Shown piece by piece: positions 7,402-55,939 of a DNA stretch of 64,000 bases. The translations under genes were made by a program, and so were the position numbers. The stretch comes from an uncultured Bacilli bacterium (GTDB taxonomy: Bacteria; Bacillota_I; Bacilli_A; RF39; UBA660): positions 9,885 through 73,884 of the forward strand of contig CANQST010000002.1 in assembly GCA_947626595.1 (NCBI GenBank). The letters are read 5' to 3'. Below the pieces are notes generated by a model. It searched no databases and was not told where the DNA came from. It saw nothing but the letters and a program-made list of their open reading frames with translations. Numbering within the stretch: the stretch's first letter is position 1; each line of letters opens with the position of its first letter.

Positions 7402-7431
7402 AATGTTGTAATATTTCATTACAACATTTTT
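7402..7431. terminator. bidirectional terminator
   Basis: ATGTTGTAAT-atttc-ATTACAACAT hairpin followed by TTTT. Confidence 0.55.
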
Positions 7432-8701
7432 ATACTTTTAGAGAACCTATTGGTACAACGTATATTCCATCTTCTCTTTGATATGCATATTCGCCTTTTG
7501 CTGTTAGTATCATTAGAAAAGTTGGATTATTCATTTTTTTAGTATCTATTTTGTCTTTTAATTTTAATAAGTTTTCAGCAGCTTCATTTATTAATTTATC
7601 GCCACCTAGTTTAATTTCAATTAAACCATATTTTCCATCTCTTAAGTGAATAACGGCATCACATTCTAAATCCAAAGCATCTTTGTAGTGATAGACATTA
7701 CCATTTATGGCTTCAGCATAAACTCTTAAATCTCTTATACATAGTGTTTCAAAGATTAGACCAAAAGTGTTTAAATCATTTATTAAATCGTTAGGTCCAA
7801 TTCCTAGTGTTGCCGTTGCGATGGATGGATCAACGAAGTATCTTGTTTCTGATGTTCTTATTGCGGTTTTACTTCTTAGGTTAGGGTTCCAAGCTGGGGC
7901 ATCTTCAATGACAAATAATTTTTTAAGGGCATTTATGTAGGACAATACTGTATCAGCATCTAAAGAAAATAAGTCGTTATTTATCATATCTTTTCTTATT
8001 GTTTCAGTAGAGGCTTGAGTTCCGGTATTTCTGGCATAACTTTTCATTAAATTTTTAACTCGTTCAGGGTTTCTTGTTGTATTATCTACATTTGATGCAT
8101 CTGATTTTATAATACCATAACAATAATCGAATGGTTCTTCTAAAGCAATATCTTTTTCTAGAAAAATACTTCTTGGCCAACCACCTCTACAACAAAGATA
8201 TGCAATATCTTCTAGTGATAGGTTGCTGGTACCTTTTATTTTTGCTTTGTTTTCAAATAAATCAGTAAGACTTACTGTACCAGTTGACTCACCAGACTCA
8301 TATAAACTCATTGGTCTCATAGTTAACCAAGCAAAACGGCCAGTTCCGGTATGTGTCACTTCGTCCATATTGCCTGGAACTGAAGAACCTGTTAATATGA
8401 ATTGCCCTTCTTTTCCACGGTGGTCTACTTCAAATCTTACGGCATCCCATAATTTGGTTGCGATTTGCCACTCGTCAATAAGTCTTGGTGTTTCTCCCTC
8501 TAATAAAATAGAAGGATTTAAATCAGCTAGTATCAGGTTTTGCTCTTTATCTTCAGGCTTACTCATATAAAGAATACTTTTAGAAATTTGTTCAGCTGTT
8601 GTTGTTTTGCCACACCATTTTGGTCCTTGGATTAAAACAGCTCCTTTTCCTTTTAATTTTTTTTCTAATAAACTATCGATAATTCTCTTTCTATATTCCA
8701 T
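7430..8701 (-). CDS. AAA+ ATPase, DUF4143-type (ATP-binding protein)
   Basis: Walker A GPKWCGKTT. PMSLYESGESTG and FVDPSIA are motifs shared with the paralog at 37200. RBS AAGGAGG precedes ATG (complement of 8699-8701). The track ORF begins 51 nt further upstream. Confidence 0.7.
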   Translation of the reverse strand: MEYRKRIIDSLLEKKLKGKGAVLIQGPKWCGKTTTAEQISKSILYMSKPEDKEQNLILADLNPSILLEGETPRLIDEWQIATKLWDAVRFEVDHRGKEGQFILTGSSVPGNMDEVTHTGTGRFAWLTMRPMSLYESGESTGTVSLTDLFENKAKIKGTSNLSLEDIAYLCCRGGWPRSIFLEKDIALEEPFDYCYGIIKSDASNVDNTTRNPERVKNLMKSYARNTGTQASTETIRKDMINNDLFSLDADTVLSYINALKKLFVIEDAPAWNPNLRSKTAIRTSETRYFVDPSIATATLGIGPNDLINDLNTFGLIFETLCIRDLRVYAEAINGNVYHYKDALDLECDAVIHLRDGKYGLIEIKLGGDKLINEAAENLLKLKDKIDTKKMNNPTFLMILTAKGEYAYQREDGIYVVPIGSLKV

Positions 8702-8758
8702 ATAAATGCCTCCTTTTGTTAGAATTATACCATTAATATACATATAAATCAATATATT

Positions 8759-8850
8759 TTCGGTTATTTGTGGAAAAATCGTTCGGTTATTTGTAGAAAT
8801 TTCATTCGGTGATTTGTAGAAAAATTATTCGGTTATTTGTAAATTTTCTA
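8759..8850. repeat. four direct repeats with exact 23-bp phasing (TTCGGTTATTTGTAGAAA core) in the divergent intergenic region
   Basis: Copies start at 8759, 8782, 8805 and 8828. Confidence 0.8.
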
Positions 8851-15938: not shown

Positions 15939-16382
15939 ATGGATAAGTTGTCAATAAGTTATAGTGTAGGAAAAGATAAGCCCCATTTAGCGAAATATGC
16001 GAATTGTGATGTAGGAAAGCTAAGTGATTTAAAGATACCTAATGAAGTTAAGGTGGCTTATCTATCGGTTACGCATTATAATGGGCATACTATTAGGAAT
16101 ATTGATACTTATATTTATATAGTTGGTAAAGTAGAGGATTGTCGTAATGTTTTAGGAGATAAGGGTAATTATAGATTGCTGAATACTAAGGAGTTTATCG
16201 ATATCTGTTTAGAAAATAATGGCAAAATGGTAGTCTGTGATGGAGAAGATAGTAAGAACGATGTCTTTCCTATGACAGAGTTTACTAGATGCTTTTCAAC
16301 TAGTGAGGAATTAAGTAATGGAGTAGTAGAATTTACTAAGAAGTTTTTAGAAGATAAGGGAAAGGTATATTTAAAGAGTTAA
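15939..16382 (+). CDS. hypothetical protein
   Basis: 147-aa ORF. Its start lies 2 nt after the preceding stop. Confidence 0.5.
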   Translation: MDKLSISYSVGKDKPHLAKYANCDVGKLSDLKIPNEVKVAYLSVTHYNGHTIRNIDTYIYIVGKVEDCRNVLGDKGNYRLLNTKEFIDICLENNGKMVVCDGEDSKNDVFPMTEFTRCFSTSEELSNGVVEFTKKFLEDKGKVYLKS

Positions 16383-18115
16383 ATGCTTTTCCTTTTTTTA
16401 TAATCTCTGTAGAATTCTCTGCAGGAATGTAGGTGATTGATGTATCTTTATTTTCAGCAACAGATACCATTTTCCCCAAGTGGGGAAAATGGTCTAATAC
16501 GTTGATATTACTACAAATGACAAGAATGCTTTTGACTTTATATCTTTATAAATTAAGGATTTTATTTAAAAATTTTTTAGTTGTTTTATAGATTTGTTTT
16601 ATGATCTCTGCAGAGATATTGTAGAGTTTTGTGCAGTATTTATGAGCATTTGATACAGCCTATCAAATACCATTTTCCCCACTTGGGGAAAATGGTCTAA
16701 TACGTTGGTATTATTACAAATGATAAGAGTGTTTTTGACTTTATGACTTTATAAATTAAGGATTTTATTTAGAAATTTTTTAGTTGTTTTATCAATCTGT
16801 TTTATAATCTCTGCAGAGATGCTGCAGAGTTTTGTGCAGGAATGTAAGCAGTTGATGTATCTTTATTTTCAGCACCAAATACCATTTTTCCGACGTCGGA
16901 AAAATGGTCTAATACGTTGATATTACTACAAATAATAAGAATGCTTTTAACTTTATATCTTTATAAATTAAGAACTATATTTAAGTCCTTTTACTGATTT
17001 AATTTATAGTCTCTGCAGAATTTTCTACAGAAAAATGGAAAACTCTGCAGAGATATTGTAGAGTTTTGAACAGTATTTATGAGCATTTGATGCAGCCTAT
17101 CAAATACCATTTTTCCCAAGTGGGAAAAATGGTCTAATACGTTGATATTACTACAAATTCAGAAATATTCTTGACTTTATATTTTTATGAATTATAAAGC
17201 CTTATTTAAGTTCTTTTATCAATTTGATTTATAGTCTCTACAGAATTCTCTGCAGAGATGCTGCAGAATTTTGTGCAGGAATGTAGGTATTTGATGTATT
17301 TTTATTTTTAGCAACAGATACCATTTTGCCGACGTCGGAAAAATGGTCTAATGCGTTGATATTACTACAAATTCAGAAATATTCTTGATTTTATATTTTT
17401 ATAAATTATAAAGCCTTATTTAAGTTTTTTTATCAATTTTATTTATAATTTCTGCAGAATTCTCTGCAAAGATGCTGCAGAATTTTGTGCAGGAATGTAG
17501 GTATTTGATGTATCTTTATTTTTAGAAGCAAATACCATTTTCCCCACTTGGGGAAAATGGTCTAATATGTTGATATTACTAAAAATAATAAGAATGCTTT
17601 TTACTTTATATCTTTATGAATTAAGAACCATATTTAAGGTCTTTTACTACTTTAATTTATAGTTTCTGCAGAAGAACTGTTAAACTCTGTAGAGATACTG
17701 CAAAGTTTTGTGCGGTAATATAAGTATTTGATGTATCTTTATTTTTAGAAGTAAATACCATTTTTCCGACGTCGGAAAAATGGTCTAATACATTGATATT
17801 ACTACAAATAATAAGAATGCTTTTGACTTTATATCTTTATAAATTAAGGATTTTTATTTATAAATTTTTTAATTGTTTTATAGAGTTGTTTTATGATTTT
17901 TGCATAATTCTCTGCAAAAAATGGAAAACTCTGCAGAGATACTGCAGAGCTTTGTGCAGTAATGTAGGTATTTGATGTATCTTTATTTTAGAAATAAATA
18001 CCATTTTTCCGACGTCGGCAAAATGGTCTAATACGTTGATATTACTATAAATTCAAGAATATTATTTGGTTTATACTTTTATAAATTATGAAAATTTCTT
18101 TAAGACTTTTTTAGT
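16383..18115. repeat. tandem array of 8 repeat units of roughly 203-233 bp, each containing a 26-bp perfect palindrome
   Basis: Palindromes start at 16466, 16669, 16881, 17106, 17320, 17534, 17767 and 18000. Every unit also contains TCTAATACGTTGATATTACTACAAAT, TTGACTTTATATCTTTATAAATTA-like and CTCTGCAGAG....CTGCAGAG segments. Confidence 0.9.
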
Positions 18116-18943
18116 TTAATTTTTAATCATAACATTTTTTTCTTTTTCTAATTCTTTAAGACTTTTTTTAGGTGTAGGTAAATTTTCAGGCATTGTTCCA
18201 CCATTTTTATTAATAACTTCTCTAATGTTTTTTCCGATATTGTAATGTGCCGCATTTGCTTTACTTTCTGTTTTAATATTTTCTCTTTTTAATTTTGACT
18301 CTGTTTGTGTAATTCGAAATAAATTTGCAGCTAGTTCTTCACTACCCATATTATCTAAAATATCTTCTCTATATCTTAGTTCTTTTCTTTTAGCAATATC
18401 GTCTGCTGTTTCGCCATTATATAAACCTTTATAACCGAAATTATGAAATTTATCAAAATTTTTAACACCTGAGTTTTTTGCTGTTTGATTTAATGAATAA
18501 TTACCTTTTTTAGTTAATTTTCTTTGATAAAGTCTCTTTTCATCTTCAGAAAGTTCACTATATTCTTTTTCGATTATTTCTTGTTTCCTAGTTTGTACTG
18601 CAAAATATGTTTGAGCTAAAGCAATGACTTGTTTTCTATTATCTCCATTTTGAGCAATTAAATAGCAAGCATATCTTGATAATTTGTAATCTTTTTGTTT
18701 TCTTTTGGAATTTGAACCTATAGATACTATTTTGTCAACGTCGATAAAATGGTCATCAATGTTATTATTGCTTAAATTACAAGTGTTTTTTGCTTTATCG
18801 ATAACACCTATAAAGTTTTTCCATTTTGAGTACTCAAGCGCTATCATTAACTCACGTGCAAGCCAGTATTCTTGATTATATTCATCAAGATGTTTGATAT
18901 TTTCAAAATTTGTTTTGCTGTATTCTTTTAGCGTATCTTCCAT
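18116..18943 (-). CDS. dinD: DNA-damage-inducible protein D homolog
   Basis: Strong recollected similarity to E. coli DinD along the whole length: EYWLAREL, LSRYACYLIAQNGD, QTYFAVQTRKQE, DEKRLYQRKL, HNFGYKGLYNGE, MGSEELAANLFRITQTESKLKRE, GGTMPENLPTP. RBS AAGGAG precedes ATG (complement of 18941-43), giving 275 aa against 274 aa for E. coli DinD. Confidence 0.85.
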   Translation of the reverse strand: MEDTLKEYSKTNFENIKHLDEYNQEYWLARELMIALEYSKWKNFIGVIDKAKNTCNLSNNNIDDHFIDVDKIVSIGSNSKRKQKDYKLSRYACYLIAQNGDNRKQVIALAQTYFAVQTRKQEIIEKEYSELSEDEKRLYQRKLTKKGNYSLNQTAKNSGVKNFDKFHNFGYKGLYNGETADDIAKRKELRYREDILDNMGSEELAANLFRITQTESKLKRENIKTESKANAAHYNIGKNIREVINKNGGTMPENLPTPKKSLKELEKEKNVMIKN

Positions 18944-19420
18944 TTTTACATCTCCTTTTTTTGTTTTTTTCTTTCTTATTAATATTGTACCAAATAATTC
19001 TTGATTATGCAAATGACTTTAGTTACTCATTTGTTCCTGTTGCTTTTTCTTTATTTATTACATTATTTTGTAATTTATGTAGAATTATCTATAGAAAAAC
19101 TGAAAAAAACTCTGCAGAGATACTGTAGAGTTTTGTGCAATAATATAAGTATTTGATGTATCTTTATTTTTAAAAGCAAATACCATTTTTCCGACGTCGG
19201 AAAAATGGTCCAATGCATTGATATTACTACAAATAGTAAGAATGCTTTTGACTTTATATCTTTATAAGTTTATAGTCTCTGAAGAAAAACTGTTAAACTT
19301 TGCAGAGATACTGCAAAGTTCTGTGCAGGAATGTAAGTACTTGATGTAGCCTATCAAATACCATTTTTCCCACTTGGGAAAAATGGTCTAATACGTTGAT
19401 ATTATTAGATATAATTAATT
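18944..19420. repeat. continuation of the tandem array (2 more units) on the far side of dinD
   Basis: Palindromes at 19182 and 19370. 19060-19180 aligns with the CTCTGCAGAG....TTTGATGTATCTTTATTTT part of the unit. Confidence 0.85.
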
Positions 19421-19582
19421 ATTGAAACTTGTTATTTCTGTTAGAGTGCTATAGCTAATTAACTGTAAAACATTATGTAAAATAAATTTAGCTTTATTGA
19501 AAAATAATGAAAATTTTGTTATATTCTAGATAGAAGAAAAACTACACATGGTTGTAGTTTTTCAAGTGTCTTGGAGGAGTAT

Positions 19583-21613
19583 ATGGCTATTAGTGAAGTA
19601 GAATTTAAAAAGGAAGAAAAAATATTAAATAAAGTAGGTAAATTACTTAATGAAACGCTAGATAGTTTAGGCTTTGATGTTAATAAGGAAGAAGAAGAGC
19701 TAAAGGAATTTAAAAAACTAGTTTGGGAAGACGCTAGTAATTTTGATAGTGGAGAAGAAGCTCAAGCAATTATGCTTACTAATGAAGAAGAAAATAAAGC
19801 AATAATGAAAAGAAATTATTTTAGAAGACTTTTACAAATAAAGAAAAAACCTTATTTTGCTTCTATTGTTTTTAAAGATGATGATGGGGATATTTTTAAT
19901 ATTTATATGTCTTTAACTTACTTAAAAGATAAAGACGCTAATAATATTTTATATGATTGGCGTAGTCCAATATGTAGTTTATTTTATGATTATGAAACAG
20001 GTCCATGTGAATATAGTGCTCCTGGAGGTACTTTTCATGGTGAATTAAAAAGAAAAAGACAATATAAAATAGATAATAATAAGTTAGTAGGAGTTTTTGA
20101 TAACTCATTAAATATAGATGATGAGGTTTTACAAGAAGTATTGGCAAATGGTTCTGATGAGAGAATGAAAAATGTTGTTAATACAATTCAACAAGAACAG
20201 AATAAAGTAATTAGAAATTTGGAAGATAATAATTTAATTGTTCAAGGAATTGCTGGTAGTGGTAAAACAACAGTTGCTTTACATAGAATAGCTTTTTTAC
20301 TATATCGTTTGGAAAGATTGTCTAGTAATAATATTTTGATTTTTTCACCTAATAATATTTTTACAGAATATATATCAGAAGTTTTACCATCTCTAGGTGA
20401 AGCTAATACCTTACAAACAACTTTTAATGATTATTTAGCAAGTTTTATTAATGAATATAAAGATGTTGAAGAGTTTACAGAATTTATTTCAAGGTATTAT
20501 TCTTATAAAGAAGAATATCCAGAGCTAGTTAAGTATAAACAGAGTGATGAAATTATAGAAGATTTTAAAGCTTACTTAGATCAATATGTAAGTAAGGCTT
20601 GTTTTGTAAATGATATAGTTGAAAATGAAAAGAATATTGTTACTAAGGAAGAATTAAATGAACTTCTTCATAATAAATATGATAGATTACCTTTATTTGA
20701 AAGATTAGACGAAATGGCTTTAAAGTTATCTAATAACTTTTATAAGGGCTCTTCTAAAAAGAAAGCTACTTTCTTAAAATTATTGGGAAAAGCGGCGAAT
20801 TTTAAGAAAGATTATAAAGAAATATATAAGAATTTCTATTTAAGTTCTTTTTGTAAGATAAAATTAACTGAAGGTATTGTTAATTCTTTTGTTAAGAAAG
20901 ATATTATTAATTATGAAGATGCTTTGCTTTTTGCTTATATGAAAGGAATACTAGAAGGATTTATTTATGAAGCTACTATTAAGCAAGTTATTATTGATGA
21001 AGCACAAGATTATAATAGACTTCAATATATTATTATAAATAATATATTTAAAAAAGCTGATTTTACTATTTTAGGAGATATTAATCAAAATATAAATCCA
21101 TATTATTCTTATAATTCTTTGGAAGATCTAAAAGATTTATTTAGAGGAGATACTAAGTATTTAGAATTATTAAAGACTTATAGGTCTTCTCCTGAAATAA
21201 TTGATTATACTAATAAGATACTTAATTTGAAACATGTTAATGCTATTAGAAAAGATAATAATAAACCAGTAATAATAAGAAAGAATTTAGAGGATTTAAA
21301 GACTAGTTTAGTTAATGATATTAAGACTTTACAGGAAAGATATAAGAGTACTGCTATTATTACTAAAGATGGGGTGGAAGCTAATAAGCTTTATGAGTTG
21401 ATTAAAGATAATGTTGATATATCTTTGTTGGATGCTAATACAAAAAGTTTTAGAAAAGATTTAGTTATTATTCCGGCATATACAGCTAAGGGGTTAGAGT
21501 TTGATAGTGTTATTATATATAATGATAGAGAGAATTCTTATAAGAATAATGAGCGTAATTTATTATATGTTGCTTGTACTAGAAGTCAGCATGAATTATA
21601 TATTTATAATTAG
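19583..21613 (+). CDS. helD: HelD-like UvrD-family DNA helicase
   Basis: IVQGIAGSGKTTVALHRIAFLLY is the Walker A region typical of HelD/helicase IV. QIIIDEAQD is motif II. RBS GGAGGAG precedes ATG 19583. Confidence 0.7.
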   Translation: MAISEVEFKKEEKILNKVGKLLNETLDSLGFDVNKEEEELKEFKKLVWEDASNFDSGEEAQAIMLTNEEENKAIMKRNYFRRLLQIKKKPYFASIVFKDDDGDIFNIYMSLTYLKDKDANNILYDWRSPICSLFYDYETGPCEYSAPGGTFHGELKRKRQYKIDNNKLVGVFDNSLNIDDEVLQEVLANGSDERMKNVVNTIQQEQNKVIRNLEDNNLIVQGIAGSGKTTVALHRIAFLLYRLERLSSNNILIFSPNNIFTEYISEVLPSLGEANTLQTTFNDYLASFINEYKDVEEFTEFISRYYSYKEEYPELVKYKQSDEIIEDFKAYLDQYVSKACFVNDIVENEKNIVTKEELNELLHNKYDRLPLFERLDEMALKLSNNFYKGSSKKKATFLKLLGKAANFKKDYKEIYKNFYLSSFCKIKLTEGIVNSFVKKDIINYEDALLFAYMKGILEGFIYEATIKQVIIDEAQDYNRLQYIIINNIFKKADFTILGDINQNINPYYSYNSLEDLKDLFRGDTKYLELLKTYRSSPEIIDYTNKILNLKHVNAIRKDNNKPVIIRKNLEDLKTSLVNDIKTLQERYKSTAIITKDGVEANKLYELIKDNVDISLLDANTKSFRKDLVIIPAYTAKGLEFDSVIIYNDRENSYKNNERNLLYVACTRSQHELYIYN

Positions 21614-22931: not shown

Positions 22932-25559
22932 GTGGGAAATTTGAAAAGACTAAATTTAATTTTACCGATGGTTATAATTGGGATAATTTTTTCTATGAGT
23001 ATTGGATTTTCCGCATTAAATAAGGGTTTGAGCATATCTGGAGAAGTAAATTATAGACCAGAAAATGACATTAGAATTACAAAAATCACTCCAGAAAAAG
23101 TGGAAAATACGACGTTAGAATACTTCGATTTTTCTAAAAAAGAGGTAAAATTGGCCTTTAAAAAAAATTTAAATTTATGTGTAAAGTTTACACTCGAAAT
23201 CACTAATTTTAGCAATTCTGAGATGGGAATTTTAAAAATTAAGGGGTTAGATGGGGGTGTAATTGATGGTTATACCCTTGGTGAAAAGTTAGTTGGAGAG
23301 GATGGAAATAGTAAAGCTGGGATGATTAAGAAATTTAGTATTACTTATAATTCTAGTGAAGAAGATGTTAAAAGTTTACTATTAAAGTTTGATTTTGAGC
23401 CTGTATATAAGATTAATTATGAAGGGTTTGATGATACTAGTAGTTTTAAAAAAGAGATATTAAGAAATGATAAGTTAGTTCAAAACTTTGGAGATAATCC
23501 TCCTAAGAAAGTAGAAGTTACTATGAATGATGAAGTAATAACACCTAATTATAGTAATGGAGTACTTACAATAGATAATGTAACTGGTGATATAAAGATA
23601 AAGCCTGTGTTCTATGATGAAAGTGGAGCAAATGAACCAGTACTTAGTGATAACATGATACCAGTATATTATGATGAGAATAATAAAGTATGGAAGAAAG
23701 CTGATAAATATAATAGAAATAATAATTGGTGTGATTATAATAATCAAAAGTGGTGTAATGCAGTTACGGTAAAGAATGTTGTAAGAGATTTATCAGGAAA
23801 TGGTAATGATGGAGAAATACATGGAGCAGTTATAGAAAATGGTGAGGCATATTTTGATGGTAAAGATGATTATATAGATACAGGTATAAAAGGCCATGAA
23901 TTCAATCAAATTACTTACATAGCTAAGTTTACTTTGCTTTCATATCAAAATATAAATCAAAGTATTATAGCAAATACTGATGGTAGTGGGAGTGCAATTT
24001 ATATTCCTGGGAAAAATAATAAACTTTTTTTTACATTATATGATGGTAGTAAAAATGGTTATAATTACATTTATGGTGATACTATAATTGAGTTAAATAA
24101 AGAATATTTAGTAGTTGCGGTGTATGATGGTAAAAATATGAAAATATTTATTGATGGAGAGCAAGTTGCAGAAGGTGCAGGCCCAGTCAACTTTAAGCAA
24201 TCTCTTTCTAAAACACTATTAGGAGGTGATCCATTAGGTGAGTCTGATGCTATTGGCGAGCCTTCAAATATTAAAATAAATGATGTATTAATATTTGATA
24301 AAGCATTAACTTTAGAAGAAATAAAAACTCATTATAGTAATAAAGTTACTTTAGGAGAAACTAAACCATTGATTTATTATGATTTTGAAGAGACAAATAG
24401 AGAAATATATAGAAATGGTAATATCGGTACAACAATACCAATGGAAGAAATAAATACCATGTGGGTATGGATTCCAAGATATTCATATACAATAAAACAA
24501 CCATATGGTAAAGCAAGCGCTGATAATCAAAGCCCCTCACAAGAATTACCTGGAGAAATAGACGTTAAGTTTATTCCAGCAAGTCAAAATGATAGTGAAG
24601 GATTGGCACAATATACAGGTAGTGATACAAGTGGATGGTTTACCCCACCTGGATTTAAATTTGGAGATAAAGATTTATCAGGAATATGGATAGGAAAGTT
24701 TGAAACCGGTTATTTGGGTGCAAGTACAGAAAATGAAGCCCAACATGATACACAAGAGTCAAATAAGGTTATTATTAAGCCAGATGTGATAAGTTGGCTT
24801 GGAATAAGAGTTTCAACAATAGAATTGGTTTCTATGGGAATTATAAAAGAAAAAAATCCTTTTGGATTTAATCAAAGCATATATGATAGTCATGCAATAA
24901 AAAATAGTGAATGGGCTTTGATGTCATATTTAACTCAAAGTAGATATGGAAAATATGGAAATACTTTATATGTGGGAGATAACAAACAAACTTACATGAA
25001 TAATTATATTGGAAATCTCTGTGGATGTTCAGCTGGGATACCACATACTAATGAGGCTTCGTTATGTGCTTATAGATATAATGATTTAACAAATATTAGT
25101 TCTGGAGCTGGGTATGTTGGAGCAGGAGCGTCAACAACGGGCAATATTTATGGGATTTACGATGTCAATGGCGGATCTTTAGAAAGTGTAATGGGTGTTT
25201 ATGATAATCCTGAAAGAAGAAGTGGTTATTCAACATCAGATAATTCGGGTTATACAGGATTACTAGACGATGGTAAAATATTTGAAGGTAGAGAATGGCA
25301 AGATGATAAATACTATGATTTTTATAGCACAGATAATTGGATGACTGCATGTGATGGAAACCCATGTAAAGGTCATGCTTTGAATGAAACGAATGCATGG
25401 TACAATAATCCAGTGAATATATTATGGGGTAGATATCCATGGAATTGGAGAAGCGGTTATTGGAAGGATAAAAATGGTGGAGTTTTCATGCATAATAATT
25501 GGGATGGCAGTGCTAATGCTGAAGCTTCATTTCGCATCGTCTTAACTCCAAATAATTAA
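22932..25559 (+). CDS. surface paralog-family protein with inserted LamG/ConA-like lectin domain and C-terminal FGE/C-type-lectin-fold-like domain (N-type III, C-type A)
   Basis: LSGNGNDGEIHGAV...YFDGKDDYID...VVAVYDGKNMKIFIDGEQV...INDVLIFDKALTLEEI is a Laminin_G_3 pattern. The C-domain has the MWVWIPRYSYTIK ... FRIVLTPNN blocks. Start is GTG 22932 or TTG 22941, the latter following RBS AGGTGG. Confidence 0.8.
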   Translation: MGNLKRLNLILPMVIIGIIFSMSIGFSALNKGLSISGEVNYRPENDIRITKITPEKVENTTLEYFDFSKKEVKLAFKKNLNLCVKFTLEITNFSNSEMGILKIKGLDGGVIDGYTLGEKLVGEDGNSKAGMIKKFSITYNSSEEDVKSLLLKFDFEPVYKINYEGFDDTSSFKKEILRNDKLVQNFGDNPPKKVEVTMNDEVITPNYSNGVLTIDNVTGDIKIKPVFYDESGANEPVLSDNMIPVYYDENNKVWKKADKYNRNNNWCDYNNQKWCNAVTVKNVVRDLSGNGNDGEIHGAVIENGEAYFDGKDDYIDTGIKGHEFNQITYIAKFTLLSYQNINQSIIANTDGSGSAIYIPGKNNKLFFTLYDGSKNGYNYIYGDTIIELNKEYLVVAVYDGKNMKIFIDGEQVAEGAGPVNFKQSLSKTLLGGDPLGESDAIGEPSNIKINDVLIFDKALTLEEIKTHYSNKVTLGETKPLIYYDFEETNREIYRNGNIGTTIPMEEINTMWVWIPRYSYTIKQPYGKASADNQSPSQELPGEIDVKFIPASQNDSEGLAQYTGSDTSGWFTPPGFKFGDKDLSGIWIGKFETGYLGASTENEAQHDTQESNKVIIKPDVISWLGIRVSTIELVSMGIIKEKNPFGFNQSIYDSHAIKNSEWALMSYLTQSRYGKYGNTLYVGDNKQTYMNNYIGNLCGCSAGIPHTNEASLCAYRYNDLTNISSGAGYVGAGASTTGNIYGIYDVNGGSLESVMGVYDNPERRSGYSTSDNSGYTGLLDDGKIFEGREWQDDKYYDFYSTDNWMTACDGNPCKGHALNETNAWYNNPVNILWGRYPWNWRSGYWKDKNGGVFMHNNWDGSANAEASFRIVLTPNN

Positions 25560-25627
25560 TTATTTAAACAATTAAGATGGTATTAATAAAATTTATATGT
25601 AAATAATAATTGTAGGTGAAGTGTATT

Positions 25628-28228
25628 ATGAATAGTAGAAAAACTAAATTAATTATAATAGTTGCCTTGTGTTTGGTAGTAATATGTTTAACAGTGGGTT
25701 ATGCAATTCTTTCTGCTAACCTTAATATAAGTGGTCAGGCCTCAGTTAATGGTGGTAGATGGGATGTTGTGTTCTTAAAGAATGATGCTAAAGTAGTAGG
25801 AGAAGGTAGAGCTAAGTGTAACCTTGGTACTATAGAAAATTCTTCTATTAAGGATTTAACTGTTTCTTTAGAAGAAGCAGGTGATAGTTGTACTTTTACT
25901 ATTCCAATACAAAATACGGGTACTGTAGAAGCTTATTTAACAGATGTTGTTGGTAAAGATAATTCTTTAACTTTTAATTCTACATCAGTATCAGATATAG
26001 AAAAAATAAAACCTTTAGTTACATATGAAGTAAAGTATGGAGATATGCAGATAAATAGTCAAACAGATTTTAGTAAGATACCAGTATTAAAAGCAGATGC
26101 TAAGGAGACAGTAACATTAAAAGCTATGATAAATGCAGATGATAGTATTGGAAAAACTAATCCTATAACTATAGGAGGATTTGATAGAACTTTTGTGTTT
26201 AATTCTAATTCATTAGAAGAAGGTTCAACAGATAGTGTAGTACCATTAGGAAGTCCAAATAAGCCAGTATTAAATGGAGATATGATACCAGTATATTATG
26301 AGAAAACAAGTGATACAACAGGAAATTGGGTTAAAGCTGATACAACGAATAGTGATAATAACTGGTATGATTATGATAGTCAAAAGTGGGCTAATGCTGT
26401 AACAGTAAAGAATACTGTAAAAGATTTGTCAGGTAACAATAATGATGGAGTAGTTCATGGAGCAGTAGTAGGAAATGGTGAAGCTAGTTTTGATGGAGAA
26501 GACGATTATATAGATGTTGGGTTAGCTGGTCATGATTTTAGGCAAATTACGTATGTGGTGAAATTTACTTTACATCATTATATTTCCGATCATCATCAGA
26601 TTATTATTGGTAATACTGAAAATGCTGGCGCTTCAATTCAGTTGAGTTCAGATGATAACAAAAGGCTTCTATTTATGGTGCTTGATAATAATACAGGCAC
26701 TTATCTCAAAGTTAGCAGCGATGCCAGTTTAATTGATTTAGAAAAAGAGTATATTGTTGTTGGCACTTGTGATGGTGGTTCAATGAAATTATATCTTAAT
26801 GGTACTTTGGTGGCTGAAAATAAAAAATCTATTAATATAAGAAATTCGATTTCTAGAGTATTGATAGGAGCAGATCCTTCTGATAATTTTGGCTTTGATT
26901 CACCATCAAATATTTCAGTAAATGATGGCTTAGTATTTGATAAGTCATTAACAGAAGAAGAAATAAAGCAACACTATAGTAATGAAGTTACTTTAGGAGA
27001 AACAAAGCCATTAGTCTATTACAATTTTGAAGATGCTAATAGAGAATATTATAAAGAAGCAAAAGCTGGAACAACAATATCAATGGATGATATAAACACA
27101 ATGTGGGTATGGATACCAAGATACTCATATACAATTAAACAACCTTATGGTAAAGCAAGTTCTGAGAATGAAAATCCAACTCAAGCTTTACCAGGAGAAA
27201 TAGATGTTAAGTTTATACCATCAACTATAACAGAAACTGGTTCAGCTCAGTATACAGAAGCTAGTCCTAGAAATTGGAGAACGAACGCTGCCTTTGATTT
27301 TGATAATAAAAAGCGAGCAGGAATATGGGTGGCAAAGTTTGAGCCTACAGGTACTTTGGGTTCTGCTTGTGTAAATGATACTTGTGATATAAATACTGTA
27401 ACGATAAAACCAAGTACTGCTTCAATAAGATTTCAAAAGGTAAGTAGTTTCTTCTATATGGCAAGAAGTATGCAAAAAGTTGATAATCCATATGGTTTTA
27501 GTTCTACAAGTGGTGATTTACACATGATTAAAAATGACGAATGGGGAGCAGTAGCTTATCTATCTCAAAGTAAGTATGGAAAATATGGTAATTCAGCTTA
27601 TACTGGAGCTAATAAAGAAATTTATCAAAATAAATCAAGTGATTATATAACTGGAAATAGTAATGGTACACCAAGCATTAGTACAATAAATACACAGTAT
27701 ACATATAATAATCTAACAAATTTAGGAACTGGTGCTGGTCAAGCAGGACCGGGAGCAAGTACAACAGGAACAATATATGGAGTATACGATATGTCGGGTG
27801 GTGCTTATGAATATGTAATGGCAGCAATAGCATATGATAATGATGATTTAGTTCCAATGTCAGGTAATAATAGCACAGGTACTAGTAATTCTGGATTTAA
27901 TGGAAAGTTTAATGATGGTACTGATTATAATGCTGGCATACCTTTTCCGAATATTAAGTATTATACTATGTATAAAACGCAAAATCCAAATTCTAGTGAT
28001 TTTACTAATTCTTTATCAGCGTGTGGTAATAGCGTTTGCTATGGATGTGCTTTGTCAGAAACAAAATCATGGTATGATGATGTTGCCCTTTTTGTATCTA
28101 GTTACTATCCATGGGTTCAGCGTGGTGGTTATTATGGTGATAAACTAGATGCTGGTATATTCGATGCTGGTTATGGTCATGGAGGTTCTTATAATTCTTA
28201 TTCCTGTCGATTAGCGTTAGTATCATAA
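25628..28228 (+). CDS. surface paralog-family protein with LamG-like insert and C-terminal FGE/C-type-lectin-fold-like domain (N-type IV, C-type B)
   Basis: LSGNNNDGVVHGAV...SFDGEDDYIDVG...YIVVGTCDGGSMKLYLNGTLV...VNDGLVFDKSLTEEEI. The C-domain is of type B (KPSTASIRFQKVSSFFYMARSMQKVDNPYGF..., end ...CRLALVS). RBS AGGTGA precedes ATG 25628. Confidence 0.8.
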   Translation: MNSRKTKLIIIVALCLVVICLTVGYAILSANLNISGQASVNGGRWDVVFLKNDAKVVGEGRAKCNLGTIENSSIKDLTVSLEEAGDSCTFTIPIQNTGTVEAYLTDVVGKDNSLTFNSTSVSDIEKIKPLVTYEVKYGDMQINSQTDFSKIPVLKADAKETVTLKAMINADDSIGKTNPITIGGFDRTFVFNSNSLEEGSTDSVVPLGSPNKPVLNGDMIPVYYEKTSDTTGNWVKADTTNSDNNWYDYDSQKWANAVTVKNTVKDLSGNNNDGVVHGAVVGNGEASFDGEDDYIDVGLAGHDFRQITYVVKFTLHHYISDHHQIIIGNTENAGASIQLSSDDNKRLLFMVLDNNTGTYLKVSSDASLIDLEKEYIVVGTCDGGSMKLYLNGTLVAENKKSINIRNSISRVLIGADPSDNFGFDSPSNISVNDGLVFDKSLTEEEIKQHYSNEVTLGETKPLVYYNFEDANREYYKEAKAGTTISMDDINTMWVWIPRYSYTIKQPYGKASSENENPTQALPGEIDVKFIPSTITETGSAQYTEASPRNWRTNAAFDFDNKKRAGIWVAKFEPTGTLGSACVNDTCDINTVTIKPSTASIRFQKVSSFFYMARSMQKVDNPYGFSSTSGDLHMIKNDEWGAVAYLSQSKYGKYGNSAYTGANKEIYQNKSSDYITGNSNGTPSISTINTQYTYNNLTNLGTGAGQAGPGASTTGTIYGVYDMSGGAYEYVMAAIAYDNDDLVPMSGNNSTGTSNSGFNGKFNDGTDYNAGIPFPNIKYYTMYKTQNPNSSDFTNSLSACGNSVCYGCALSETKSWYDDVALFVSSYYPWVQRGGYYGDKLDAGIFDAGYGHGGSYNSYSCRLALVS

Positions 28229-37040: not shown

Positions 37041-37132
37041 TTAAAATTTGTATATTAAAAAGCTTAAAAATTGTATATCAAAAGTCTTAAAAAATGTATA
37101 TTAAAATCCTTAAAATTTGTATATTGATATTG
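37041..37132. repeat. four direct repeats with exact 23-bp phasing (TTAAAATTTGTATAT core) upstream of the second DUF4143 ATPase
   Basis: Copies start at 37041, 37064, 37087 and 37110. Confidence 0.8.
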
Positions 37133-37199
37133 AAAAATTACTATAAATATGGTATTATTTTATTGGTGATGATTAGTGAATTTTAATGAAAAGGAATAT

Positions 37200-38450
37200 A
37201 TGCCTAGGTTAATTGATAAAAACATAGATAGATATTTAGAAGTTTTTGGAGCTGTTTCTGTTGAGGGACCAAAATGGTGTGGTAAGACTTGGGCATCTTT
37301 GAGGCACGCTAAAAGTGTTGCTTATTTGGATGATGAAAGTACTAAACAAAGAGCTTTATTAGATTTGGAATTGATTTTAAATGATCAACAACCAGAACTT
37401 ATTGATGAGTGGCATTTAATTCCGGAAATTTGGGATAGAGTTAGAAGAAAGTGTGATTTAGATAGTAAAAAAGGAAAATATATTTTGACTTGTTCTACGC
37501 AACTTGATGATGAAAGAAGAAAACACATTTATCATTCTGGTGCTGGTAGAATTGGTAAACTTAAAATGTATCCTATGAGTTTGTATGAGTCTGGTGAGTC
37601 TACAGGAGATGCATCTTTGATGGATATGTTTAATGGTAAACAAAAAAATAAAAATGTTAAAATTCCTAGTTTAGAAGAAATAGCTAATTTAATAGTAAGA
37701 GGTGGATGGCCTGATAATATTAAAGTTTCTAAAGATAAAATCAATATAATTCCCAAGAGTTATATTGCCTCAGTCCTTGATAAAGATATTGATGATGGTA
37801 AAAAACGTGATAAAGAAAAAATGAATATGCTTATTAAATCACTCGCACGTAATGAGTCTACCATTGTTAGTAATCAGACGTTATTAACTGATATAGGTAC
37901 TTATAATAATAACGAAGAATTAATAGAAAGCAGAGTAACACTAAGTGATTATTTAGATGTTTTAGATAGACTTCACTTTACTGAAAATCAAAGTGCTTAT
38001 AGTGAGAATTATCGTTCAAGAGAAAGACTTGGCAAAACACCTAAAAGACATTTAATAGACCCATCTTTAGCTTGTGCCGCTTTAAATTTAACTAGTGATA
38101 AATTACTTAGTGATTTGAGAACTTTTGGTTTCTTGTTTGAGTCTTTAGTAGAAAGAGATTTAAGAATTTATATAGAATATTTAGATGGAAATATTTATCA
38201 TTTTAGAGATAATGTAAGTGGATTAGAAGTTGATAGTATACTGGAATTTCCGGGAGGAGATTATGCCGCAGTTGAAATAAAGTTAGGTTTTAACGCTATT
38301 GAAGAAGCTAAGGCTAATTTAGTAAAGTTTGCGAGTAATATGACTAAAAAACCTAAATTTATGTGTATTATTACTGGTAATTTTGATGCTGTAGCAAAAG
38401 ATCCAGATACGGGAATATATATTGTTCCTATAACAGCTTTAAAACCATAG
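37200..38450 (+). CDS. AAA+ ATPase, DUF4143-type (paralog of 7430-8701)
   Basis: GPKWCGKTW Walker A. PMSLYESGESTG and IDPSLA are shared with the other copy. Confidence 0.7.
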   Translation: MPRLIDKNIDRYLEVFGAVSVEGPKWCGKTWASLRHAKSVAYLDDESTKQRALLDLELILNDQQPELIDEWHLIPEIWDRVRRKCDLDSKKGKYILTCSTQLDDERRKHIYHSGAGRIGKLKMYPMSLYESGESTGDASLMDMFNGKQKNKNVKIPSLEEIANLIVRGGWPDNIKVSKDKINIIPKSYIASVLDKDIDDGKKRDKEKMNMLIKSLARNESTIVSNQTLLTDIGTYNNNEELIESRVTLSDYLDVLDRLHFTENQSAYSENYRSRERLGKTPKRHLIDPSLACAALNLTSDKLLSDLRTFGFLFESLVERDLRIYIEYLDGNIYHFRDNVSGLEVDSILEFPGGDYAAVEIKLGFNAIEEAKANLVKFASNMTKKPKFMCIITGNFDAVAKDPDTGIYIVPITALKP

Positions 38451-55864: not shown

Positions 55865-55939
55865 TGCCCTATAGCCAAGTGGTAAGGCAGTGCGCTCTGA
55901 CCGCATTACGCGTTAGTTCGAATCTAACTAGGGCAACCA
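55865..55939 (+). tRNA. tRNA-Gln (anticodon CUG)
   Basis: Hand-folded cloverleaf. Acceptor TGCCCTA/TAGGGCA (U1-A72), D-stem GCC/GGC, anticodon stem GTGCG/CGCAT, loop CT-CTG-AC, variable loop TACGC, T-arm GTTAG-TTCGAAT-CTAAC, discriminator A, CCA encoded. Confidence 0.8.

Follow-up and report, generated by a model that had tools for sequence, protein, structure and literature searches.

A tandem array of probable dinD fragments in an uncultured Bacilli bacterium, and the covarying palindrome embedded in dinD coding sequences

The stretch of 64,000 nucleotides analysed here (hereafter the window), taken from contig CANQST010000002.1 of an uncultured Bacilli bacterium, has a GC content of 28.9%, resembles a chromosome of Firmicutes type and contains, between an open reading frame (ORF) of 147 amino acids of unknown identity (15939-16382) and the gene helD, a 3-kb repeat array inside which lies an intact copy of dinD, the gene for DNA-damage-inducible protein D (Table 1). 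Ten palindromes of the form ACCATTTT-N12-AAAATGGT occur within 16466-19387. When one mismatch is allowed the pattern matches 11 times in the window, against 0.02 expected from shuffled sequence, and all 11 copies are confined to this one array; the ten palindromes to which an earlier note on this DNA had drawn attention are therefore real and non-random, with cores as it had listed them. Tandem Repeats Finder (TRF) gives a period of 214 bp (6.7-7.7 copies) and in addition a two-unit super-period of 437 bp, and 12 hairpin-like sites were counted in the region where 0.9 were expected. The units of the left-hand block are oriented as the dinD gene.

The resident DinD protein possesses a Pfam Bro-N domain, scores 341.9 bits (cut-off 242) against the NCBIfam equivalog NF008573, and matches both the PADLOC defence candidate PDC-S13 and a DinD-HsdS fusion model; its AlphaFold2 model has a predicted local distance difference test (pLDDT) score of 86. 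When each of the ten units is translated on the minus strand, one frame gives, with stop codons around it, the peptide ...ICSNINVL-DHF(S/P)(D/H/Q)(V/L)GKMV-F.SKNKDTSNTYIPAQN..., and in every unit, in the one orientation, this aligns with the DinD segment ...C.NS....L-DHF.DV.KMV-.IGSGA.R...LSRYACYLIAQN. Each unit is accordingly composed of a dinD pseudo-fragment of about 110 nt and about 100 nt of AT-rich sequence containing a second, small inverted repeat. Similarity in collections of phages and plasmids was confined to the dinD ORF, and the repeat units matched nothing. Their identity was tested by alignment to dinD, and the units do align. It is thus highly probable that the region is a tandem array of units of about 214 bp, consisting of decayed dinD fragments on both sides of an intact dinD, and, jointly with this, that what each unit carries as its 28-bp palindrome is the one that genes of the DinD family have within their coding sequence, where it encodes D-H-F-x-x-x-x-K-M-V in the frame GAC CAT TTT nnn nnn nnn nnn AAA ATG GTC.

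The array copies had been described in the earlier note as a 26-bp palindrome kept perfect by compensatory changes, with a 3-nt centre flipping between AGT and ACT and with a single imperfect copy (18001). The symmetry stands, over a length of 28 bp (ACC...GGT): the perfect copies (n=8) are 12+4+12 hairpins without bulges. The centre does flip, as a unit of 4 nt which is either AAGT, its reverse complement ACTT, or the self-complementary ACGT. The mirroring of every arm change holds for these eight copies and breaks down at pair 9/20 in two imperfect copies, those at 17320 (G.A) and 18000 (T.C). Folded as single-stranded DNA, the array copies have predicted free energies (dG) of -8 to -12 kcal/mol, with z scores of -4 to -6. 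The proposed count of covarying against non-covarying arm positions, when carried out on the ten aligned palindromes, gives variation in only two of the 12 stem pairs, the remaining ten being constant: pair 9/20 is U-A in five copies, C-G in three and mismatched in two, while pair 12/17 is C-G in five and G-C in five. Because the units are tandem duplicates, with very few independent events among them, the array taken alone says little in favour of covariation, and the strong case for it is made by homologous genes elsewhere.

A scan with the pattern ACCATTT-N14-AAATGGTCTAAT, in which the 14 inner bases were left free and one genome was taken per species, returned 102 loci in Clostridia, Bacilli, Bacteroidota, Campylobacterota, Desulfobacterota, candidate phyla and one archaeal metagenome-assembled genome (MAG). 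In most of these, five to seven of the seven pairs that the free inner bases can form are self-complementary, in many different sequences, and most of the matches lie inside full-length DinD ORFs, about 70 codons preceding the motif and about 215 following it. In dinD of Escherichia coli K-12 the corresponding sequence is GACCATTTCGAGGAGATCCTCGATATGGTC, at DHFEEILDMV, with 13 of 15 positions paired (dG -12.2, z -5.9). An unbiased set of 55 distinct dinD sequences was gathered from metagenomes by means of the peptides RYACYL and AQTYFA, both outside the motif. In this set the 13-pair stem is paired in 90.2% of cells, compared with 74.7% after column shuffling; 115 double-change cells were counted where shuffling gave 29.7, and covariation scored 0.458, the shuffled value being 0.159. 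In 500 shuffles the observed value was never reached for pairing, for double changes or for covariation, and when the register was slid by 1-3 nt only 31-52% of cells remained paired. In synonymous resampling, where the amino acids were kept and codons were drawn from each gene's own usage, the observed mean of 11.3 pairs out of 13 compared with 8.1 after resampling, the observed figure being the higher in 55/55 genes; in 53 of the 55, the motif window ranks first for self-complementarity among all 30-mers of its gene.

The two arms are coupled through their codons. Where Asp is encoded by GAC on one arm, the other arm carries Val (GTN) in 59 of 59 cases, and where it is encoded by GAT the partner is Ile (ATN) in 19 of 19; likewise Phe TTT is matched by Lys (AAA) in 86 of 90 cases, and Phe TTC by Glu or Asp (GAN) in 11 of 15. 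A synonymous choice on one arm therefore predicts a non-synonymous, even a charge-reversing, state on the other, and the four variable codons between them form reverse-complement pairs (R/T, A/G, V/N, V/D, P/R, P/G, S/G and others). Pairing is maintained even where amino-acid changes result. One DinD subfamily (L204, L206-L208, L210, L212, L213, L215, L230 and L248 in our numbering of related loci) has EHF....KLSKRANNAEV in place of DHF....KMV.IGSGA.R; it retains the inner palindrome, but part of the outer pairing is lost, which leaves 10-11 of 15 pairs. A self-complementary stretch of 28-30 bp is thus present within the coding sequence of dinD genes ranging from E. coli to Clostridia and Bacteroidota, and it has apparently gone undescribed, no description of a palindrome in dinD having been found in the searchable literature. 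The location of DinD between the core genes of type I restriction-modification (R-M) systems, and DinD-HsdS fusions, are already on record (PMC9881135, PMC4996451).

The composition and the rates of change of the element indicate what is being conserved. The GC content of the 12-nt core is 58-66% in every class of genome GC, from below 30% to above 50%, whereas the neighbouring 60 nt of the same dinD genes follow the genome, at 31-54%; in the array the cores have 69% GC against 25% for the remainder. All 16 of the outer-arm columns in the array are invariant, compared with 43% of well-aligned flank columns, and mean pairwise identity reaches 1.00 in the outer arms, compared with 0.77 in the flanks and 0.74 in the core. 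The core thus evolves about as fast as the neutral flanks, but along symmetric, GC-preserving paths only, and the arms are held in sequence. Invariant arms combined with symmetric, GC-preserving change in the core disfavour a purely mutational, self-correcting quasi-palindrome. We conclude that pairing, the GC-rich core and the fixed arms are under selection. For pairing this upholds the earlier proposal, through the excess over both column shuffling and synonymous resampling and through a core that is GC-rich at any genome GC. The accompanying statement that a sequence-specific duplex operator would not behave in this way was too strong in view of the invariant outer arms, and symmetric changes across lineages would also be expected from a dimeric binder with drifting specificity. 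As to the level at which the element acts, a tally of per-position counts gives about 41 mismatches of G.U type (sense strand) and about 59 of A.C type; since G.U is not in excess over A.C, there is no signature of a sense-strand RNA helix, and the element looks strand-symmetric, that is, DNA-level.

Copies of the site are not restricted to single positions within dinD. At least two sites are present at 16 loci, the window included. A Desulfovibrionaceae MAG has an array of ten copies about 125 bp apart and Brumimicrobium glaciale one of five copies exactly 180 bp apart, both with no dinD nearby. No dinD lies within 3 kb of the arrays at L014 and L031. Elsewhere, sites within short dinD fragments bracket single accessory genes: a YhcG/DUF1016 nuclease (L038), an AAA_14+DUF4143 ATPase (L014), an Abi_2 gene directly after dinD (L123), and dinD itself (L077, L101 and the window). 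At L013 two sites follow RhuM between hsdM and hsdS of a type I R-M operon. The flanking copies at L077 and L101 have the same inner sequence as the intragenic copy, and at several loci copies stand about 100 bp upstream of the start codon. Many dinD fragments terminate exactly after KMV or start just before LDHF. Two extragenic copies (L082:758-785 and L088:7346-7373) carry a symmetric CTAATAT extension on both sides, so that the dyad symmetry spans about 42 bp; it looks as though both arms had received a copy of the upstream dinD flank.

In many prophage contigs (L109-L201, from IMG/VR; for example L141:1466-5204 and L185:3001-5136) dinD stands between a CI-like repressor with helix-turn-helix and S24 domains and an integrase. 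A tyrosine integrase lies directly downstream of dinD in the same orientation at 37 loci, and a serine recombinase is adjacent at about 11. This is the normal accessory (moron) slot of the lysogeny module and not an att junction, and the idea that the palindrome is a phage attP/attB site, with integration into dinD, was rejected on this ground.

Signs of recombination are found on the 3' side of the palindrome. Pairwise max-chi-square scans were made over 157 aligned dinD genes; in 55 of the 98 significant mosaic pairs, which are phylogenetically non-independent, the breakpoint falls 30-90 nt after the start of the palindrome. Replacement of a segment by the EHF/KLSKRANNAEV form lies behind many of the breakpoints at about 60 nt. 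In E. coli dinD is dimorphic: the K-12 allele (L108:5761-6585) and a second allele (L145:3001-3807) differ by about 40% over the first 250 nt or so and by about 3% thereafter (about 97% identity), the switch point being about 40 nt 3' of the palindrome. Among 5426 complete genomes, 1898 have the 5' module of K-12 type and 2809 the other (at least 80% query coverage). Within the array of the window, all four combinations of upstream unit subtype (defined by a 10-nt indel) and downstream subtype are present, and the units have therefore recombined around the palindrome.

The explanation that we favour, taken as a whole, stands at roughly even odds (about 0.5); it joins the identity of the units given above to a mechanism based on a recombination joint. 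The mechanism is advanced more tentatively, at somewhat less than an even chance: that the palindrome may be a DNA-level, strand-symmetric element selected for its ability to fold back as a hairpin in single-stranded DNA or as a cruciform, and that it may thereby make its point of dinD a recombination-prone joint. DNA folded back at the palindrome would be prone to break, to switch template and to enter into illegitimate or homeologous exchange. From this would come dinD fragments with an end at the palindrome, neighbouring accessory genes bracketed by short dinD fragments, mosaic dinD alleles, and tandem arrays such as that in the window, the last being reshaped later by unequal crossing-over. 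Template switching over the fold-back would also place new core variants on both arms and could produce the AAGT, ACTT and symmetrised ACGT centres. Among proteins, only DinD, which has an N-terminal Bro-N domain and a DdrC-like body, invariably accompanies the site.

Several observations weigh against this reading. In the window's own dinD the palindrome has decayed: it is the weakest of all the copies, while non-coding relic copies are perfect (dG about -12). Duplex DNA with a GC-rich centre between A/T tracts does not readily extrude a cruciform. Breakpoints in the mosaic genes fall outside the palindrome, 10-45 nt to its 3' side; the pairs compared are not independent, and max-chi-square positions are drawn by a locally conserved block. 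There is no conserved recombinase, nuclease or transposase neighbour of dinD, the neighbours differing from genome to genome. Finally, extragenic copies occur in only about 3% of the dinD loci selected by protein, so that brackets and arrays are rare by-products and not the reason why most genes keep the palindrome, and a recombination joint leaves the primary function of the palindrome in intact, single-copy dinD genes unaccounted for. A more ambitious version, which we consider distinctly unlikely, would have dinD genes carry a structure-specific, coding-embedded DNA site, with fixed arms around a free but self-complementary, GC-rich core, that works across phyla as an attC- or REP-type hairpin. 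The site would either be read by DinD itself, as a Bro-N plus DdrC-like binder of lesions or structures recognising the DNA of its own gene; or it would be a cassette joint, where sites bracket and shuffle genes of defence type (Abi_2, YhcG, the DUF4143 ATPase, RhuM and DinD) without a linked recombinase, and arrays like the one described here would be footprints of a cassette system not recognised before.

Other explanations can be set against a recombination joint. The palindrome might be a duplex site whose outer arms are bound by a symmetric homodimer, for which DinD is the candidate, the intragenic site serving as a self-contained feedback element (by roadblock or looping) and the extragenic copies and arrays being extra operators or relics. 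Outer arms that are sequence-invariant even in the non-coding array would follow naturally, as would the shared inner sequence of flanking and intragenic copies at L077 and L101, the copies about 100 bp upstream of start codons, and the lack of strand asymmetry among mismatches. A reader of the outer arms leaves unexplained, however, why self-complementarity and a high GC content should be demanded of the core across genomes whose GC ranges from 24 to 60%; moreover, several cores coexist in one array and none equals that of the resident dinD, the L014 and L031 arrays have no dinD close by, and most dinD genes have a single site, so that looping is not the general mode. The known precedents, gal OI in galE and lac O2 in lacZ, are likewise symmetric elements within coding sequence, sometimes with an additional upstream site, but those operators are conserved in sequence and not in pairing, and have neither a covarying GC-rich core nor arrays. 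On balance we consider this explanation unlikely. A hairpin in dinD mRNA that pauses translation, serves as an RNase site or stabilises the transcript, with the array copies as relics or perhaps weak terminators or stabilisers, appears less likely still, and RNA structure, one of the options raised in the earlier note, is not favoured. A stem of 12-14 bp with a GC-rich apex is typical of stable RNA hairpins, the element is always transcribed within dinD, and a T-rich tail follows three array copies on the minus strand (3/10 copies pass a loose terminator scan of that strand). Against this, G.U-compatible mismatches show no excess over A.C on the sense strand, perfect palindromes occur in non-coding arrays in either orientation relative to neighbouring genes, and inside dinD genes no U tract (T tract) follows the hairpin. 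No Rfam family is matched either: at the gathering score the only hit in the window is a tRNA at 55865, and at E values up to 5 nothing credible appears over 16300-19600.

A non-adaptive origin has also to be considered. Quasi-palindrome correction is an established mutational mechanism (Ripley, Lovett). Here template switching would convert one arm to match the other, mutation bias would yield symmetric changes and slippage would yield arrays, the whole perpetuating itself. Such a process accounts well for the symmetric double changes, for the AAGT, ACTT and ACGT centres, since inversion or symmetrisation of the centre is predicted at such hot spots, and for the change from K to E that tracks TTT to TTC. 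It does not explain outer arms that remain invariant while the array flanks are 23% divergent, a core of 60-69% GC maintained against strong AT pressure, or persistence across phyla in a coding context, where the baseline of 8.1 pairs out of 13 implies that codon choice is actively biased; and whereas the familiar quasi-palindrome hot spots are single-gene curiosities, the dinD palindrome is family-wide, with a GC-rich core and fixed arms that imply selection. We regard it as improbable. The identity suggested in the earlier note, subterminal hairpins in single-stranded DNA read by a Y1 (HUH) transposase or by a RAYT, the transposase associated with repetitive extragenic palindromic (REP) sequences, is very improbable. 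Structure is indeed kept around a variable core, and the copies are clustered and flank a gene. Nevertheless, a comparison of 40 ORFs of the window with Pfam revealed no Y1_Tnp, RAYT or other transposase and no integrase, and no such gene is conserved beside 280 related loci. The 5' GTAG head is absent, the array copies starting with ACCA; there are no dispersed copies in the 64 kb; and the palindromes are relics of a sequence that is demonstrably dinD coding. Ends of an IS200/IS605 element were rejected likewise, the only flanked gene being dinD and no tnpA or tnpB match being present among the scanned ORFs.

Comparison with known systems helps to place the element. REP sequences and bacterial interspersed mosaic elements (BIMEs) with their RAYT resemble the dinD site in being palindromes of 20-40 nt with lineage-specific cores, clustered and flanking an associated gene; the dinD site differs in having no RAYT/HUH protein or GTAG, in its low copy number and single locus, in lying inside its associated gene, and in forming arrays that are direct tandem repeats of 125-214 bp. 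Integron attC sites, and clusters of attC sites lacking integron-integrases (CALINs), also conserve structure while sequence drifts, stand on either side of single accessory genes, and can build up into arrays whose cassettes are very short and whose sites all share one orientation. The dinD site, in contrast, has no R''/R' boxes or extrahelical bases, sits in the middle of a coding gene, and has outer arms that are conserved in sequence across phyla, and neither the window nor the examined loci contain an IntI. An integron attC identity was rejected: there is no RYYYAAC...GTTRRRY, the arms being ACCATTTT/AAAATGGT and the stems having no bulges. The tRNA-gene fragment arrays of integrative elements are alike in that repeated partial copies of a gene, with dyad symmetry, record earlier recombination and bracket foreign genes, but dinD is not at a prophage junction and the units of the window are too short to be elements. 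The hr regions of baculoviruses consist of tandem units with an imperfect palindrome of about 30 bp, often near bro (Bro-N) genes; they are bound by IE-1 as enhancers or origins and did not arise from bro coding sequence. To our knowledge the site bears no likeness to the consensus sequences of dif/Xer-type 11-6-11 sites. An internal start codon, in which the Met of KMV would follow a Shine-Dalgarno-like motif, was discarded because the codons before it are too variable.

Table 1. Coordinates of the array, the resident dinD gene and the inverted repeats of the window.
Feature	Position	Strand	Description
Left array block	16407..18115	-	8 units of ~203-243 bp, each a decayed internal dinD fragment plus AT-rich spacer; from TRF and unit alignment
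Palindrome copy 1	16466..16493	.	core CCCC-AAGT-GGGG, perfect; dG -12.4, z -6.1
Palindrome copy 2	16669..16696	.	core CCCC-ACTT-GGGG, perfect
Palindrome copy 3	16881..16908	.	core TCCG-ACGT-CGGA, perfect; dG -12.0, z -6.4
Palindrome copy 4	17106..17133	.	core TCCC-AAGT-GGGA, perfect
Palindrome copy 5	17320..17347	.	core GCCG-ACGT-CGGA, one G.A mismatch at 9/20; dG -9.2
Palindrome copy 6	17534..17561	.	core CCCC-ACTT-GGGG, perfect
Palindrome copy 7	17757..17784	.	core TCCG-ACGT-CGGA, perfect
Palindrome copy 8	18000..18027	.	core TCCG-ACGT-CGGC, one T.C mismatch at 9/20; dG -8.3
Intact dinD	18116..18943	-	DNA-damage-inducible protein D, 275 aa, ATG at 18943; inside the array
Palindrome of the resident dinD (11th copy)	18726..18753	-	codons DHFIDVDKIV; 11/14 pairs; dG -3.5, z -1.1
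Right array block	19060..19420	-	units 9 and 10, between dinD start and helD
Palindrome copy 9	19182..19209	.	core TCCG-ACGT-CGGA, perfect
Palindrome copy 10	19360..19387	.	core TCCC-ACTT-GGGA, perfect
Second, smaller inverted repeat CTCTGCAGAG-N-CTGCAGAG	16809..16829	.	example; one per unit
Further copies of the second inverted repeat	16606-16626, 17249-17267, 17463-17481, 17925-17953, 19295-19321		

The second inverted repeat, in which the two arms are separated by N5, holds PstI sites, is followed by TTTTGTG on the plus strand and is well conserved among the units; no copy turned up in the arrays of other phyla. Promoter-like sigma-70 sites in the array are at the level of chance (20, against a shuffle expectation of 20.2), and an array of small-RNA genes, each unit with its own promoter, was accordingly rejected. 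A CRISPR array was also dismissed, since the would-be spacers are themselves repeated, with a mean pairwise identity of 77%. In two Logan contigs with the 147-amino-acid gene (L282 and L283) independent short-read assemblies of this locus stop about 130 bp past that gene, at the start of the array, which is probably under-represented or collapsed in public assemblies.

Elsewhere in the window there are two AAA_14+DUF4143 ATPase genes, at 7430-8752 on the minus strand and 37176-38450 on the plus strand, and each is directly preceded by about 3.6 tandem copies of a different 23-bp repeat (8759-8841 and 37041-37125), in what looks like an iteron- or operator-like arrangement; an ATPase of this type is also the gene bracketed by dinD palindromes at L014. 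Between 22932 and 54034 there is a long same-strand run of ORFs of about 620-875 amino acids, of which those at 22932-25559 and 25616-28228 contain Laminin_G_3 and several others have no Pfam match. These may represent a paralogous family of large surface or secreted proteins.

The dinD gene is a classic SOS gene of E. coli K-12, and its relatives occur in type I R-M operons, in prophage lysogeny modules and in defence islands. That pairing overrides amino-acid conservation in such a gene is an unusual signal, and a strong one, that a coding region contains a second code at the level of DNA. A caution follows for the annotation of intergenic arrays of covarying hairpins, which can be the pseudogene relics of an element embedded in coding sequence. 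The palindrome of E. coli itself offers an experimental handle on the action of DinD, on its mosaic alleles, and on the bracketing and movement of small defence genes.

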